This document shows, in pieces, positions 4,991 to 55,206 of a stretch of DNA of 64,000 bases. Numbering within the stretch: position 1 is the first letter of the stretch; each line of letters begins with the position of its first letter. Below the pieces are notes generated by a model, which worked only from the letters and a program-made list of their open reading frames with translations, was not told the DNA's origin and ran no database searches. Source of the stretch: Octopus vulgaris (lineage: Eukaryota); contig OX597814.1 of the NCBI GenBank assembly GCA_951406725.2, positions 222,766,001 through 222,830,000 of the forward strand, in the 5' to 3' direction. Both the position numbers and the translations under genes were made by a program.

Positions 4991-7685
4991 AAAAATAGAG
5001 GTATTTAGGTTTCATGCGTGAATATATATGTGTGAGTATGGGCGTGTGTTGTGTGGACACACACGCACACATATATATATATATGCAGGACTTTATAAAG
5101 GTGTTTCTGTGAGTGTGTTTGTGGAGTGCACGAATTGATATATATATATAAGGCTGTATTTCTGTCTGTATGTCAACTAAATTTTACTGACAAATATGTG
5201 TGTGTGCGCGCGCGCGCGTGTATTCGCGTGTGTGTATGCAAGATTTTATGTTGTTGTGCACAGATTGTAATCTTTTGACCTTTCATCTCTCTTCTCCACT
5301 CAAATTCTTTCTGCCATTGTCTGTTTTTATGAGCCCAAGGCTTAGAAACTTGCTCTGCTTAGCCCACATCAACATACACCTGCGATTTATCTACTTCTCG
5401 ATCCCATATGTATGTGTGAGAGTGTATATGTCTGTGTGTGTGTGTATGCATTTATGTATATTAATAGGTATGTGCCCGTCCACACATACATACACACACA
5501 CACACACAATAATCCTTTTAAATATAATTTATGCTACCTTTCTGGTAGCCAAGGTTTTTAGCTGAGAGAAACCAACATTTATTCCACTAAAAGTCAAATC
5601 ACAAATGACACTCCCTTTCAGTAGTCTGTAACGTGTGATACAAAATCAAGTGTATTGCGACCCTTTGATGTCATCAGAGATGCTTTTCATCCATGTTTTT
5701 TGTAGAAGGAAATAATCATTGAATGATAGTAGTTTTTTTTATTTGTTTACTTCTTTGTAGTGCATCATAAAAGTTACAATATTTAATTTAAATAACCATG
5801 CGATGTTAAAAGAACAGTCGGAGATTTCTAATAGGAAATTAAGAGGTATAAAATAAGAATGGAGAACAGAAGTTGAGGAAAGCCAGGTGAAAATAAATGC
5901 TATAAAAGCTGGTATAAAGTTAATATATGAAAAACATAATTATTGTAATTAAATAAATTATTGCATCAATGAACGTAGAAAAGTAGGGACTGTAAATATA
6001 TTCCAATTTGTATATGTATGTTGTGCATGTGTTTATGTGTGTGCGTGAGTGCGTGTGTGTATTGTCGAGCTTAAATATGCATATTGTCACTTGATTCTGA
6101 TTTTTCCCTCTTGTACGGTAACTGGAACAATGCTATACGATAGTTTAAATAGTTATTAATATTCTGCATGGGAAATTGTGATGTTGTTGCATTTGGATTC
6201 AATAATCGATGCAATTAATTCATAATTCTATTTTACCGATCTCAACACCTATGTTGCATGTTGGCATGATTGCTGGCGGAAAATAAATTAATAACACCTA
6301 ATTTTATAAATAACCTCTGTTTATATAAATTTTATTTTTATGTGTTTTGTATTGCACGCTGAACATGTGGGCTACTCATCGTGATTATATTATTTGTCAT
6401 CATTAATTACTAGTAATTAAAAATATCTTCCGAATAGGAAATAAGAAATACGAACTGGGGTGTTGATTTTTAAGTTGCGTGCAAACAAAGACTTCAAATT
6501 AGAACAGTTTTTTTTTCTTTTCTTCGGGAATATTGCTGATTTAATTGTTTTAAAGAAGTAATGGATTCTATGTATGAAACTATTTAGGTACATTGAAAAT
6601 TCTTATCTCATCTGGCCAAAATCATACAACATTTAATCTCACCCTTGTATACTCCAGTTTCATCTTCGCCTTACATATCTCCAGATATATTTTCTTGAAA
6701 TATTCAAATGAAATTCTGATGGCATTAAATACGATATTTTCTTATATGTGTTTCTTGATAAATATTTCAATATGGTATGTTTTAGTTAACAATCAATTCT
6801 CTTGCATTCTCTGAAATACATCATATTCTGTATCAATATGACGGTAAATAAAAATTGCCCTGGAGTTTTGGTGTTGGAAAATAGTGAATGTTGTCTATTT
6901 CAAATTGCATTTATCAAAAGTGTGATTTTGATGGAACTCATAGCATCTTCTGTCATCTATGGAACTTTATTATACCTTTTAATTAAGTACAAGGAGAATA
7001 CGCACGCGCAAACTGTGAATAAACTAATCACGATGATGTTCCTTCAAAATCAACGGAGCACTGTAATTCAATGACACTTTTGATGTTGAGACACAACGGT
7101 TAGGGGTTGGGATATTTATACATATTCGCTGTTTCCTATCCATGGCGAGGCACGAATTTCATTTAAGCAGGTGACAATCGTATCCGCATTCACTAGTTTC
7201 TTCAAGAGTGAAAAAGATCTTACGTTCTTGTAATGTCCGTCTCCCTAGGATACATTGCAAGTTTAACAACTAGATTACAAAGAGATTTCATCTCAGATTT
7301 TCCACGGCTTCATGCTTTCTAACGCTGTATAGGTATATACAGTGCTACACAGTTTGGTGTATATATATATATATATATATATAGGTCTGTGCCTGTGTGT
7401 GCGCGCGTGTGTCTATGTGCGTGTTTGTGTGTGTGTGTGTGTGTGTGTGTGACTGTGTGTATGTGTATGTTTGTAGGAATTAATGATGTTTGCATTCAGT
7501 AAGTGCAAGTTACATCTTAGGAAACAAGCATCGACTATAATATTTGAAGTCACGCTCAGCTCTAACCTGATTGGCAAATTTGACTCAACTAAGCGTTTAA
7601 AGTCCTACCATCAGTAAATATTAGTATTTTTTCTTACATATTCCTTTACAGTAAAAACACAGAATAATTATGTCTGTTTGTCAGT

Positions 7686-7717
<32 letters not shown>

Positions 7718-8738
7718 CTGTAGATGTATGTGTGCGTATGTGTATAGATGTACGTGTGCGTGTGTTAATGGGGTGTTTGTGCATGAGTAATTGTCAGTTT
7801 CCAACGAAGTCCATAACAAGAATCTGGTTTAATTTACATCTTCCACCAGAACTGAACACCTGTATAGAGCTACTACATATTTTATCAATATTTTCATATC
7901 AGTTTACTCTCACTGTTCAGGAAAGTAACAGTCTTTTGTTTATTTTTGTCTCCTGTATGCTATACTTCATTTTCTCAATTGCTGTACCTTCACACGAATC
8001 TCCTCCAAACTAAAAAAAAAACTACACTTCATTTCTTTGATATTGCATGCACAACGGCATTAATTTGTTTTACAAGCAGTAGTGAATGGAATAAAAAAAA
8101 AATGATATCTGTAAATCGGATCATCGACGGATGAAAAATAAATGTACGGAGAGCGTTTGCTTTCATCTGCTGCCTATTAACACAGGAATATTAAACAAAT
8201 ATATAAACCAGTTCGATTTCCCTTGAGAAAAAGAAGTGTCCAACACTTTGGATGGAAAAAAGATGATAGCAAGCTTTTTATGTTCTAACAATTGAACAGT
8301 AGAGGAGGAAAAAAGATAAAAAATAAAACTAAAGAATAGAACCTTGTAAAAGTATAGCAAAGGAAATTAACGAGAAAATACTCAACCAAAATTTAATAAC
8401 GAAACAAAAAGGACACCATATACTCATCTGTCACAAAGACTTTTCTATTCAATTCAGAGGAAATAAAGAGCAAGATAGAACATGGTAAACTGAAATTTTC
8501 GATATATCTACAATGATTGTAGACATATCGAGGTAACCTTATAGTTGAACTTTATACGGGTTGGTAACTAATCAGCATCTTCATTGGATTTTATTATCGC
8601 TTAATGATGCTTATAACATTTATTTGAATATGTATATATATACATATATATATGTGTGTGTGTGTGTGCTATTTCTATTTTCTCTCACTGGTTTCAGCTC
8701 AGAGCTGCAGCCATTCTGATGCACCGCCGTTTAAAAAT

Positions 8739-36134: not shown

Positions 36135-36797
36135 TTTCTTGAAACAATAAATTTCTATAGAGATTAGGATTTAAATTCTAATCTATGAAAAGGTTCCGTT
36201 CTACAATATTCTTGAAGGAACGCAATTTGTCCAACAACTCGGGCTAATACGAACGAGCCTGGTAGGTGTAAAAGACTAATTAGCATCTCTTATGAAGAAT
36301 ACAGGCGACAATCAGATCGCTGATATTTGTTGTTCACTCTGCTGCCGTTATTTGATTGCTGTTATTCAGAGCGTTTGTGTGCGAAGATCAGTTGTATTTT
36401 GCAGGATTGCCTTACTTTTACTCTCAACTTTGAAATGGAGGAATATATAGTACTATATATAAAAAAAACAGATAAGCCATTTGGGGTTAGAAATAAAGCG
36501 GAAAACGTGAAATTCTTCGAGCAGGCATGTGTCCTATGCGAAATCTGTGATGAGCAAGATTGACGCTGATAACTTGGAGTCGCCTGTGATATATATATAT
36601 ATATAATAATAATAATAAATATTAGGGAATAAATTCAAATTTACAGGGAAAAATCAGATTTAGGATTGAATCCAATTTTATAGTAAAATATAATATAATA
36701 TTAATTAGAGACAAAACCACTATTATGCAAATCAAACAAAGAAAGACTTAATCCAATACATAAAAAATTTTATATAAATTAAATATAATTAAGATAT

Positions 36798-36843
36798 CCA
36801 CTACGATCGTTTCTTGTCACTTCAATGGACATTCGTCAGGTGG
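36798..36843 (-). ncRNA. Minimal type-I hammerhead ribozyme motif
   Basis: Reverse complement: CCAC CTGACGA a TGTC cattgaagt GACA a GAAAC GATC GTA GTGG. Stem I CCAC/GTGG, intact core, palindromic loop III, GUA site. Confidence 0.85.
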
Positions 36844-36879
36844 TTTCAAGACCTTCTATGCAATTTTAAGGTCTTGAAA

Positions 36880-36925
36880 CCACCTGACGAATGTCCATTG
36901 AAGTGATAAGAAACGATCGTAGTGG
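36880..36925 (+). ncRNA. Minimal type-I hammerhead ribozyme motif
   Basis: CCAC CTGACGA a TGTC cattgaagt GATA a GAAAC GATC GTA GTGG. The single difference from the other arm gives a G-U pair in stem II; predicted cleavage after 36921. Confidence 0.85.
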
Positions 36926-37017
36926 ATATCTTAATTATATTTAATTTATATAAATTTTTTATGTATTGGATTAAGTCTTTCTTTGTTTGATTTGCATAAT
37001 AGTGGTTTTGTCTCTAA

Positions 37018-37063
<46 letters not shown>

Positions 37064-37165
37064 CATTAAAAGGCCTCCAAATAAAGAAGCGAGTGCTAGA
37101 TACACAAAAAGGGGATAAATTCATGAAATGGAATGAAAATCAAAAACGTTTACCATCTCAGCTAA

Positions 37166-37240
37166 TCCCGTACTGCAGTTTCATCTTTTTTTTAGCAAAT
37201 GAATAGAATTTATCTGCCAAGGCCAGAATCGTCTGCAGTA
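37166..37240 (-). ncRNA. Type-I hammerhead motif, core-mutated copy
   Basis: Reverse complement: TACTG CAGACGA [long stem II] GAAAC TGCA GTA CGGGA; core CTGA is changed to CAGA. Confidence 0.65.
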
Positions 37241-37619
37241 AGCCTTTGTAATCCGAGCTGTACATACCGTTGGAAGCACGTGCAAATTCATTCCATTTCA
37301 TGAATTTATCCCCTTTTTGTGTATCTAACACTTGCTTCTTTATTTGGAGGCCTTTTAATGTATTTATATATGAATAACGCATAGTCTAATGACTAATTCG
37401 TCTTTTGTGCTGGGTCACTGGTAATGATAATTTATTTTTATTACCCTATTTACTATGCTTAAATATTGCTCGATAAATTTGCTCGTAAATTTTTACCGGC
37501 ATCCTCTCTGTTCGCCAGGTATAATTTGCGTCTGCGCACTGGTCTGAAAAGTTAGGGTATACAGGTCGTTGGATTTGCACGTGCTTCCAGCGGTATGTAC
37601 AGCTCGGATTACAAAGGCT

Positions 37620-37693
37620 TCCTGCTGACGATTCTGGCCTTGGCAGATAAATTCTATTCATTTGCTAAAAAAAGATGAAACTGGAGTACAGGA
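37620..37693 (+). ncRNA. Type-I hammerhead ribozyme motif with extended stem II
   Basis: TCCTG CTGACGA ttct ggcc TTGGCAGAT aaattctattc ATTTGCTAA aaaa agat GAAAC TGGA GTA CAGGA. 5-bp stem I, intact core, predicted cleavage after 37688. Confidence 0.8.
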
Positions 37694-37890
37694 TTAGCTG
37701 AGATGGTAAACGCTTTTGATTTTCATTCCATTTCATGAATTTATCCTTTTTTGTGTATCTAGCACTCGCTTCTTTATTTGGAGGCCTTTTAATGTATTTA
37801 TATATGAATAACGTATAGTCTAATGACTAATTCGTCTTTTGTGCTGGGTCACTGGTAATAGTAATTTATTTTTATTACCCTATTTACTAT

Positions 37891-38064
<174 letters not shown>

Positions 38065-45129: not shown

Positions 45130-45160
<31 letters not shown>

Positions 45161-45181
45161 ATATCTATCTATCTATCTATC
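44787..45181 (+). repeat. ~395-bp direct duplication, copy 1 (copy 2 starts at 45629)
   Basis: CTCTCGATGGATAGATCG...GCTGTTGATATCTATC is repeated 842 bp downstream with about two substitutions plus microsatellite length changes. Confidence 0.97.
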
Positions 45182-45631
45182 TCAAAGCATTCTATAGGGG
45201 TTTAGTGGAGGGGAGGTACGACGACGAGCTCGGGGCGAACCTGGACGTCGACGAGGAGTACCTGACCCGCCTGTTCAGGACGACTTTCGGGCCAGGGCCC
45301 ATGGACAACTTCCAGAGATCCCTGGCCTGGCAGTGCTACCGAGAAGCGCTACCCGTTCGGGATAAGCTCTACAGACACGGCTCGAGAAACACGGGGCCGA
45401 CCTGCCCGAGATGCGGTCAGAGCGACGAAACCGTTCTGCACGCACTCGTTCAGTGTCCAACAATTTCCGACCTGTGGGCTTGTGTCGAACAACTGCTGTC
45501 ACGTGTGGGACGAGTCGGTTTATCAGCTGAGTCTATCGTCAATATTGTCACGCCTCCTTCCTTCAAACGGGAAGGAAGAGCTATTTTCATCATCCTTGTG
45601 GCTATGGCGAAAGAATGTATCTGGTGGACTC
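45182..45631 (+). mobile_element. L1/Tx1-clade non-LTR retrotransposon ORF2 C-terminal fragment (zf-RVT / CCHC zinc knuckle)
   Basis: Open frame KAFYRGL...LAWQCYREALPVRDKL...CPRCGQSDETVLHALVQCP...W...AKECIWWT; GC- and CpG-rich island. Confidence 0.88.
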
Positions 45632-45817
45632 TCGATGGATAGATCGATACAAAAAAAAAAAAACGTTCCGGTACATCCGCAACCATGTGTGTCTTTAGCA
45701 CTCCCATGATTTCCACCACAATTAGAATCCATCACTGTCATCACTACATCTACACGACTTGCACCAAAACGATGAAGAATTGCTTATCAACAGTTCATCC
45801 TCCTCCTCCTCCTCCTC

Positions 45818-54116: not shown

Positions 54117-54409
54117 AAGTATGCATATATAAGTATGCATATATACATAAATATACACAAACACACATAAGCGCACGCACATGGATATATACATATATGT
54201 ATAAACATATATTTATATAATATACATATATTATATATATATATGTATGTATGTATACACACACATATATATACATATGTATAATATGTATATATTATAT
54301 AAATATACGTTTATACATATATGTGTGAGTATGTATGCATATGCGCACGCTTATGAGGTCTACGGTGTGCGCGCGTGTGTGTGTGTGTGTATTTATGTAT
54401 GCATGCATG

Positions 54410-55206
54410 TATATTTTTCGCCGCACTTGATCGCTGCGTCCCTAAAACTGGTGTGTAAAGCAAAATATTCAACTGTCATATCCTACGCAAATACATCAAA
54501 CTTAGAACACCATATTCATAAGATTAACAACCGGAAACTGAGCAAAGATAAGTCAGCACTCAAAATAACCTTCTCGACAGCAACCGTATCTCATATGAGC
54601 AGTCTAAAGACAACGTTTGTAGTTCGGATTATACTACCAACCAACAGAGCACTAATTACAATATACATGATAACCATAAAAAATAACACCAGCAACAATT
54701 CAAATAATATACTGAGAACACCTAATGATAATAAAGCGAAAATAGTGACAACCAATATACCGAACAGAACCACTCCCTCCAGGGCTCGATGTACACAAGC
54801 CAACAAAATCAAATAGTTATAGTCATGCAGAGATAGATCCATTTGTCCTTTGGATAACCTATGTATGACTAGGAACGTGATATACAAGTGCACTATAAAT
54901 ATTAAAGGAGGCCCCTACGTATATATCGGGGCATCGGTTGATAAAAATCGATACCACAATCACATCGCCAGCTTTCAAAATATCCTTAAATGCCATGTAA
55001 CATCGGTGGCCGATTTTATCTGGAGGTTTAAGGTATGCTCCCAGGCGTCACTCTCGATAACGTTAACAAAGGAGCGCGTTATAAATAAATTCATTGAACC
55101 CAGATATCTACACGCAGCTAAACACACATTGACATATTGCAATCCCAACCATACATTACTTGATGTATATATCGCGCCCACAACTCTTCTTACAAATGAA
55201 TTTTAG
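54410..55206 (+). pseudogene. Penelope-like retroelement ORF remnant: RT C-terminal tail, linker and GIY-YIG endonuclease
   Basis: One frame with stops at 54814 and 54820: ..TVISYANTSNLEHHIHKINNRKL..*SCRDRSICPLDNLCMTRNVIYKCTI...YVYIGAS..KNRYHNHIASF...TSVADFIWRFK. These are the Cys-rich linker, VIY/YIG and RYxNH motifs of PLE endonucleases. Confidence 0.85.

Follow-up and report, generated by a model that had tools for sequence, protein, structure and literature searches.

The hairpin at positions 36698 to 37024 of the window, a stretch of 64,000 nucleotides of Octopus vulgaris DNA (contig OX597814.1), is probably one insertion made of two back-to-back copies of a spliced PLE leader, for which the element protein would have cleaved a (TA)n repeat on both strands and used the two ends as primers on one sense RNA. 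The identity of the family, its ORF-bearing parent, the GT-AG introns, the exact exon junction and the two fixed outer ends, both represented once in an insertion, are established. The mechanism is read from the genomic end products of this octopus family, which favour it.

Structure of the hairpin locus

The two arms (36698 to 36855 and 36868 to 37024) and the 12-nt loop between them (CTATGCAATTTT, 36856 to 36867) lie where the earlier note had described them, and the 327-nt RNA is predicted to fold into a single hairpin at -247 kcal/mol. Both arms carry, on opposite strands, the reported motif CCAC-CTGACGA-stem II-GAAAC-GATC-GTA-GTGG. A pairing-neutral change had been given as the only difference between the arms. 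The G-C versus G-U difference (36816/36907) is indeed there, but a 1-nt indel in the T run at 36768 to 36771 is a second one. The left boundary had been drawn too far in: the left arm goes on for about 90 nt as a tail, with element sequence to about 36605, and the insertion is therefore asymmetric. Nor is the loop a mere spacer, as it is the reverse complement of the end of the first exon of the element. The features are collected in Table 1.

Table 1. Features at and around the hairpin locus (positions within the window)
Feature	Position	Strand	Evidence or remark
(TA)n target, left side	36589..36604	.	Sequence; (TA)n habit of the family's outer ends
Tail, about 80 nt, from the near to the far outer-end site, left arm only	36605..36687	-	Matches L031 and most long arms
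Long arm, made of leader exon 2 of the element (pseudo-LTR)	36688..36852	-	97-99% identity to natural family copies
Type I hammerhead motif, palindromic stem/loop III ACGAUCGU, A.A at the base of stem II	36798..36843	-	Predicted cut between 36802 and 36801
End of exon 1 (last 15 nt) joined to exon 2; includes the 12-nt loop	36853..36867	-	Equals the exon end before the GT donor in unspliced L140
Inversion junction of the two copies	36867..36868	.	Blunt, overlap 0 against the closest natural reference
Inverted, short arm: exon 1 (3 nt) followed by exon 2 to the near outer-end site	36868..37024	+	Sequence, family comparison
Second hammerhead motif; G-U in stem II through a private C-to-T at 36907	36880..36925	+	Predicted cut after 36921
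(TA)n target, right side, common to the neighbouring insertion	37021..37059	.	Sequence
Adjoining insertion of a second hammerhead-bearing repeat family, same layout	37061..37900	.	Sequence, genome search
Adjoining insertion: inverted short arm	~37061..37290	-	
Adjoining insertion: partial long copy	~37287..37466	+	
Adjoining insertion: long copy	to 37900	+	
Adjoining insertion: hammerhead motif	37620..37693	+	
Adjoining insertion: core-mutated hammerhead	from 37240	-	
Non-LTR retrotransposon remnant	45130..45709	+	zf-RVT domain
Decayed piece of another Hydra-like PLE ORF	54205..55206	+	CxCX5C and YIG motifs

The tail segment corresponds to the 5' UTR that leads into the ORF in ORF-bearing copies. 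At the other end, the short arm is AT-rich at 37024 and merges into (TA)n; both flanks are (TA)n, so a target-site duplication is indistinguishable. The centre of the locus measures 16 bp, the shortest among the sampled pairs with two whole hammerheads (25 such pairs), and its arms depart from the family majority by about 1.1%, as arms of the family do in general.

It is extremely improbable that the palindrome arose in assembly, or that it is transposed in one piece like a MITE. Inverted PLE structures are known to trouble assemblies (PMC8557442), and two junction types were seen twice, one of these cases being a local duplication. Against this, the two arms differ at two places, one is tailed and the flanks are unmirrored; moreover, 69 loci share the layout with junctions that are nearly all different, and the outer ends are unequal, unlike terminal inverted repeats. 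The unequal ends and almost entirely distinct junctions led us to reject a MITE identity. Contigs from four DNA or unclassified sequencing runs did not bridge the fold-back junction under a 31-letter rule; one of them had 30 letters on one side of it, and it possibly came from the assembled sample itself.

The adjoining insertion shares its (TA)n with the hairpin insertion. Its family gave 1,979 candidates in the genome, and in 40 scored loci 14 inverted partners ended at one near site.

The element family and its spliced leader

The genome searched (2.8 Gb in 227 contigs) is AT-rich and filled with microsatellites. Searching it with one arm gave 1,037 candidates, 40 of which were scored and yielded 59 matches at 94 to 100% identity. 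For the comparisons below we sampled 100 of the 178 exact pattern matches plus the top DNA matches, 130 loci altogether, which provided 187 arms in 98 clusters; this sample favours copies with an intact 3' half of the hammerhead. Back-to-back pairs were present in 69 of the 98 clusters (71 pairs), versus four convergent neighbours, and 26 clusters held a single arm. Two whole hammerheads occurred in 25 of the back-to-back pairs. Since arms lie about 1.1% from the majority, the family is young. The locus had been taken for a young PLE stub with an inverted pseudo-LTR (pLTR) and a dimer-type hammerhead, and this reading was borne out by the low divergence and by a parent whose ORF encodes RT and, at its C-terminus, GIY-YIG.

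The parent copy at L031 is laid out as inverted partial pLTR, pLTR, ORF, pLTR with tail and (TA)n. This architecture of tandem pLTR, inverted 5' copy and one-end tail was found in L031, L140 and L044 and in 58 of 62 pairs. The spliced unit is about 3 kb long (L031) and the unspliced unit more than 5 kb (L140). The L031 ORF is a single RT ORF with YRDD and AIYIG motifs, a C-terminal GIY-YIG-type endonuclease and one frameshift, and its alignment with an intact homologue covers both the RT and endonuclease parts. Pfam recognised neither an RT nor an endonuclease domain in the parent ORF, and a PDB sequence search with a homologue gave no useful match. Two non-LTR RT fragments and a fragment of a GIY-YIG-type PLE ORF of another clade surround the L031 element (L031:228-2322, 6751-7767).

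Judged by its sequence motifs, the family is a Hydra-clade PLE. That clade is defined by DKT, CxCX5C, CxxC/CxH and GIY-YIG at the C-terminus (PMC8557442, Craig et al. 2021). We found DKT in place of DKG in L140 (QSDKTRN), and in L031 the CxCX5C linker (CTCRDKSKC) together with CxxC (CYLC) and CxH (CRH) around conserved E and N; inspection of the L031 ORF by eye found no CCHH. The RWK position reads RIKWKAY in L031 and RWK or RWR in homologues. Nine full-length homologues have the same kind of sequence, with RWK/RWR and DKT in the five examined. The Naiad clade, suggested by the RT motifs, was ruled out by the C-terminal position of the endonuclease. Non-LTR retrozymes are head-to-tail tandem units of 150 to 400 nt that are cut to circles; the octopus copies are scattered and inverted and belong to a parent with an ORF, and we rejected this identity as well. 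An Asn-rich (AAT)n stretch lies in the ORF between the RT and the endonuclease (L031:3500-3700, minus strand; L140:2880-2960), and N-rich inserts have likewise been described in rotifer PLEs (PMC3846280).

Described Hydra-clade PLEs, such as Penelope-13_HM and Hydra-1_Obim, share the motifs, the GIY-YIG, the (TA)n and the pLTR hammerhead with the octopus family (PMC8557442), and Penelope-13_HM also has an inverted 5' copy with a hammerhead on each strand (PMC8557442, supplement). Hydra-1_Obim, one listed octopus Hydra family, has a different hammerhead (PMC8557442, supplement), and the hairpin family is therefore separate from it. Described members of the clade are under 3 kb with tails of 30 to 40 nt and RWK (PMC8557442), whereas the octopus element has an unspliced unit of more than 5 kb with microsatellite-rich introns of 1.1 and about 3 kb, a tail of about 80 nt and KWK. 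The head-to-head inverted pLTR, the one-end tail and the AT-rich target are features that it has in common with Drosophila virilis Penelope and Adineta vaga Pen2a (PMC3846280, PMC8557442).

At 51 nt upstream of the cut, the arms that extend so far continue into one of three upstream sequences. In two unspliced copies (L037 and L140) there are a 3' UTR donor (GTCTG/GTAAGT), a second donor after a short exon (GAAG/GTACGT) and one acceptor (TTTTAG/) nine nt before stem I. The introns of L140 measure 2,875 and 1,116 nt and contain microsatellites. Those of 1.1 kb and about 3 kb carry (TG)n and (TA)n repeats (L140:4023-6897, L037:1731-5057). Under strict extension, 9 to 32 nt of exon 1 were joined exactly to exon 2 in 68 of the 187 arms. 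A loose classifier divided the 118 arms that reach the start of exon 2 into 77 spliced from exon 1, 29 unspliced, four spliced from the UTR and eight uncallable. Sequence 5' of exon 1 is limited to three unspliced loci, which suggests that the RNA probably starts 26 to 33 nt upstream of the splice donor, from an internal promoter. This putative promoter would sit in the longer intron, and splicing from the 3' UTR donor would remove it (the L031 type).

In D. virilis Penelope a promoter is followed by an intron within the pLTR (PMC2377424), and the intron ends at helix I (PMC4209133, Cervera and de la Pena); D. virilis-type PLEs thus resemble the octopus family in having the intron shortly after the pLTR promoter (PMC2377424). 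Intron retention has been noted for D. virilis and Adineta PLEs (PMC3846280, PMC8557442), whereas the short octopus copies derive mostly from spliced RNA. A contig from a run guessed to be RNA lacks the 1,116 nt of the intron; since DNA with the joined form exists too, this contig is no evidence of splicing or expression.

Formation of the mirror insertions

Outer ends of arms fall at two sites, about +114 (near) and +190 (far) from the cut, and (TA)n follows 161 of the 176 classified ends (84 of 87 long, 77 of 89 short). Among the 62 classifiable pairs, 58 combined a short with a long arm, against 31 expected (binomial p 1e-13), while three were short plus short and one was long plus long; the other nine of the 71 pairs, which have a deleted, fragmented or edge-cut arm, were left out of this classification.

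We propose that the leader RNA would be transcribed from the internal promoter about 26 to 33 nt upstream of the splice donor and then spliced. The element protein would cleave a (TA)n repeat on its two strands, and reverse transcription would be primed from both target ends on a single sense RNA, with the two outer ends representing two internal RT start sites. Each cDNA would head to the RNA 5' end, some 200 to 280 nt off, and the two cDNA ends would be joined with little or no microhomology. Since the cDNAs would run just this distance before joining, near-symmetric palindromes would be common.

L1 twin priming uses two primers from two target ends on one RNA and results in an inversion. 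It leaves two segments without overlap, whereas the octopus family copies the same stretch twice. A biochemical counterpart is the Poseidon element PAc of Anolis, which belongs to another clade than the octopus family (PMC11167929, Frangieh et al. 2024): the purified protein cleaves and extends both target strands, RT starts at two internal sites that bound the tail, and the template is mainly uncleaved RNA. The one-short-one-long rule fits the two start sites seen for PAc in vitro. These lie in an AC-rich stem-loop inside the ORF (PMC11167929), while those of the octopus element are in the 5' UTR and share the AT-richness of the target.

Paired arms carried one and the same loop-II haplotype in 27 of 30 cases (20,000 shuffles gave 10.4 on average and at most 21), and the splice form agreed in all 18 callable pairs, with five more uncallable. 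Both arms of a pair had a rare allele in common nine times versus 0.3 after shuffling, a count that left out two misaligned or distant pairs and slippage-prone positions; one such allele, U7C, occurs only in the two arms of the hairpin locus. The concordance of alleles and splice forms points to one template, and because sense RNA alone is spliced, the splice junctions in the arms identify that template as sense RNA. Two sibling RNAs of the same source locus would give the same concordance. Some common alleles could also stem from later gene conversion between the inserted arms, which differ within a pair by 1.5%, where twice the distance to the majority would predict about 2.2%. The points that count against the proposed mechanism are the three loop-II mismatches (clear in L024, a distant 40-bp fragment in L050 and a new substitution in L097), the 41 of 71 junctions with unexplained bases and the 26 of 98 clusters with one arm.

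The junctions comprise 26 with an overlap of 1 to 6 nt, four that are blunt and 41 with extra bases (24 of 1 to 30 nt and 17 longer), the last class partly reflecting limits of the reference sequences. In L107, a short plus short pair, the two arms extend to the apparent start of the RNA and join at the short palindrome AAATTT, which gives an almost loop-free hairpin.

Antisense self-priming has been proposed for rotifer PLEs (PMC3846280). Had a first cDNA, or an antisense RNA, snapped back and copied itself into an inverted arm, the head-to-head geometry, the shared alleles and the short overlaps at 26 junctions would all be accounted for. However, an antisense template cannot hold the exact GT-AG junctions seen in at least 68 arms, including one at the hairpin locus. 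A fold-back copy must also lie within the first strand. The short arm reached further 5' in 16 pairs and the long arm in 26, both reaching the start of exon 2 in 16 others; where the short arm reaches further, each arm has sequence that the other lacks, so that neither was copied from the other. We consider self-priming by fold-back improbable.

A different division of labour is that two sibling leader RNAs, joined through the palindromic stem III of the hammerhead, each template one target end, with the ribozyme serving as a dimer scaffold. Homodimer folding of exon 2 from 115 arms (94 with a complete motif) made the double hammerhead the best, minimum-energy structure in 20 of 20 arms of one common allele, although in only one of 35 arms of another and none of 31 of the allele of the hairpin locus. 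With exon 1 added, the double hammerhead came within 1 kcal/mol or won for the second loop-II allele, and it was predicted best for L017 and L088. The neighbouring family keeps its palindrome through a double change (CUGCAG in 13 and CCGCGG in two of 17 motifs), 118 of 187 arms pass the cut site to the start of exon 2 while two of 41 truncated arms end at the cut, the arms of L024 carry different loop-II alleles, and the PAc protein is predicted to be a dimer (PMC11167929). The allele and splice-form concordance, however, means that the partners would nearly always have come from one locus and one isoform, and splice form would differ between the two pLTRs of a single tandem transcript. A further asymmetry is required to account for the strict one-short-one-long rule, and hammerhead mutants had no effect on PAc insertion in vitro (PMC11167929). 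We regard sibling templates as unlikely. Equally doubtful is a broader version that makes the hammerhead a pairing device, whose palindromic loop would join sibling RNAs while a protein dimer primes both ends at the two start sites, and in which the acceptor nine bases before the ribozyme would decide between a full element, a promoterless compact copy and a tiny dsRNA-forming palindrome. Priming of both target ends on one sense RNA is the reading that we retain.

Hammerhead folding and the fate of a hairpin transcript

Both arms contain the core CUGANGA, GAAA and an NUH cut site (GUA); helices I, II and III can form with 4, 4 to 5 and 2 bp, and loop III (ACGAUCGU) is self-complementary. The cut site that the earlier note had predicted on the plus strand agrees with this motif, as does its minus-strand counterpart (Table 1). 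The hammerheads had been called intact, which holds for the catalytic core but not for the closure of stem II, where an A.A mismatch replaces the usual G10.1-C11.1 pair. This mismatch is family-wide (A in 132 of 132 and in 135 of 137 arms), and common variants inside the motif are confined to loop II. Rfam returned no match at gathering thresholds, and at E up to 10 no hammerhead model, only generic hairpins of miRNA/snoRNA type; we dismissed the sub-threshold miRNA matches as reflecting the generic hairpin shape. The hammerhead call accordingly rests on the motif and not on a covariance model. A 23-nt hammerhead piece had 178 exact matches in the genome versus none for a reversed control, so the motif is not there by chance. 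Slower substitution in the catalytic core (9 of 1,604 versus 1.1%) was dropped as an argument, as the search pattern had selected those bases.

Minimal PLE hammerheads resemble those of the octopus family in being type I, with a short helix I, a palindromic loop III and a dimer model, yet they keep the G10.1-C11.1 pair that the octopus family is without (PMC4209133). Among 25 published Hydra-clade hammerheads listed (PMC8557442, supplement), U.U stands at the base of stem II in 14 and A.A in none. The neighbouring family, which has a long stem II, has U.U there in 13 of 17 motifs, G.U in one and G-C in three. With U.U in both the published Hydra motifs and this family, a mismatch at the base of stem II appears normal for the clade. 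Dual hammerheads on opposite strands are 100 to 700 bp apart in Schistosoma (PMC4209133), whereas the two octopus motifs are 36 bp apart.

Minimal PLE hammerheads cleave poorly even as dimers (PMC4209133). For the octopus family, we would expect cleavage to be weak and to depend on dimers, strongest with the AAUAGAAGU allele, poor with the allele of the hairpin locus and absent from the full hairpin. The loop-II allele of the hairpin locus is predicted to misfold even as a single arm, with the hammerhead fold 9 to 11 kcal/mol uphill in the monomer and 7 to 10 kcal/mol in the dimer. Truncated arms do not pile up at the cut site, and the two of 41 that end there led us to reject ribozyme-cut RNA as the template. 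Twelve of the 41 stop +6 to +16 from the cut, in or next to the 3' strand of stem I (scan p 0.03); this excess could reflect RT pausing at stem I, or merely local microhomology.

The earlier note had proposed that the transcript, whichever strand it comes from, could switch between cleaving itself and forming long dsRNA. We find such a switch very improbable as a functional device. It is true that both catalytic cores are intact, that a transcript spanning the locus would give a 157-bp duplex, and that the junction on the plus strand recreates an acceptor-like TTTTAAG/G, which judging from sequence could in principle splice off the antisense arm. The ribozymes, however, point outward from the centre in opposite directions, so that read-through transcription would, on both strands, make the antisense arm first, 12 nt ahead of the ribozyme. 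Reaching the hammerhead fold would then be some 80 kcal/mol uphill (81 to 84 kcal/mol above the hairpin ensemble), and the allele at this locus is predicted to misfold even alone. The 25 two-ribozyme pairs in the sample mark the layout as a by-product. The insertion keeps no promoter, and a Pfam scan of 133 of the window's 907 reading frames recognised no host exon, only one zf-RVT remnant and one sub-threshold match. A transcript of the hairpin locus would accordingly be predicted to form a dead-end duplex. A role for the ribozyme is predicted in the parent RNA alone, where it would act as a dimer; within the hairpin insertion it would be trapped in duplex.

Inverted pLTRs, one-sided tails and opposite-strand hammerheads are already published (PMC8557442, PMC4209133, PMC3846280), and the formation of PLE inverted ends is stated as open (PMC8557442). 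The main text of the 2026 repeat annotation of O. vulgaris mentions neither hammerheads nor the Hydra clade (PMC13282606). Our literature search, with most subscription journals outside its scope, found no description of the octopus family and none of a splice form that fixes the template strand of a PLE palindrome. The family adds to the Hydra clade multi-kilobase introns, a pair of splice donors and a hammerhead variant with A.A, and its palindromes would be long dsRNA if transcribed. The hairpin locus itself is an ordinary retroelement footprint and probably not an RNA switch. It adds modest evidence on the PLE insertion mechanism, and its relatives help to show how mirror insertions form; together they provide a natural, countable test set on PLE inverted ends, with specific TPRT predictions.
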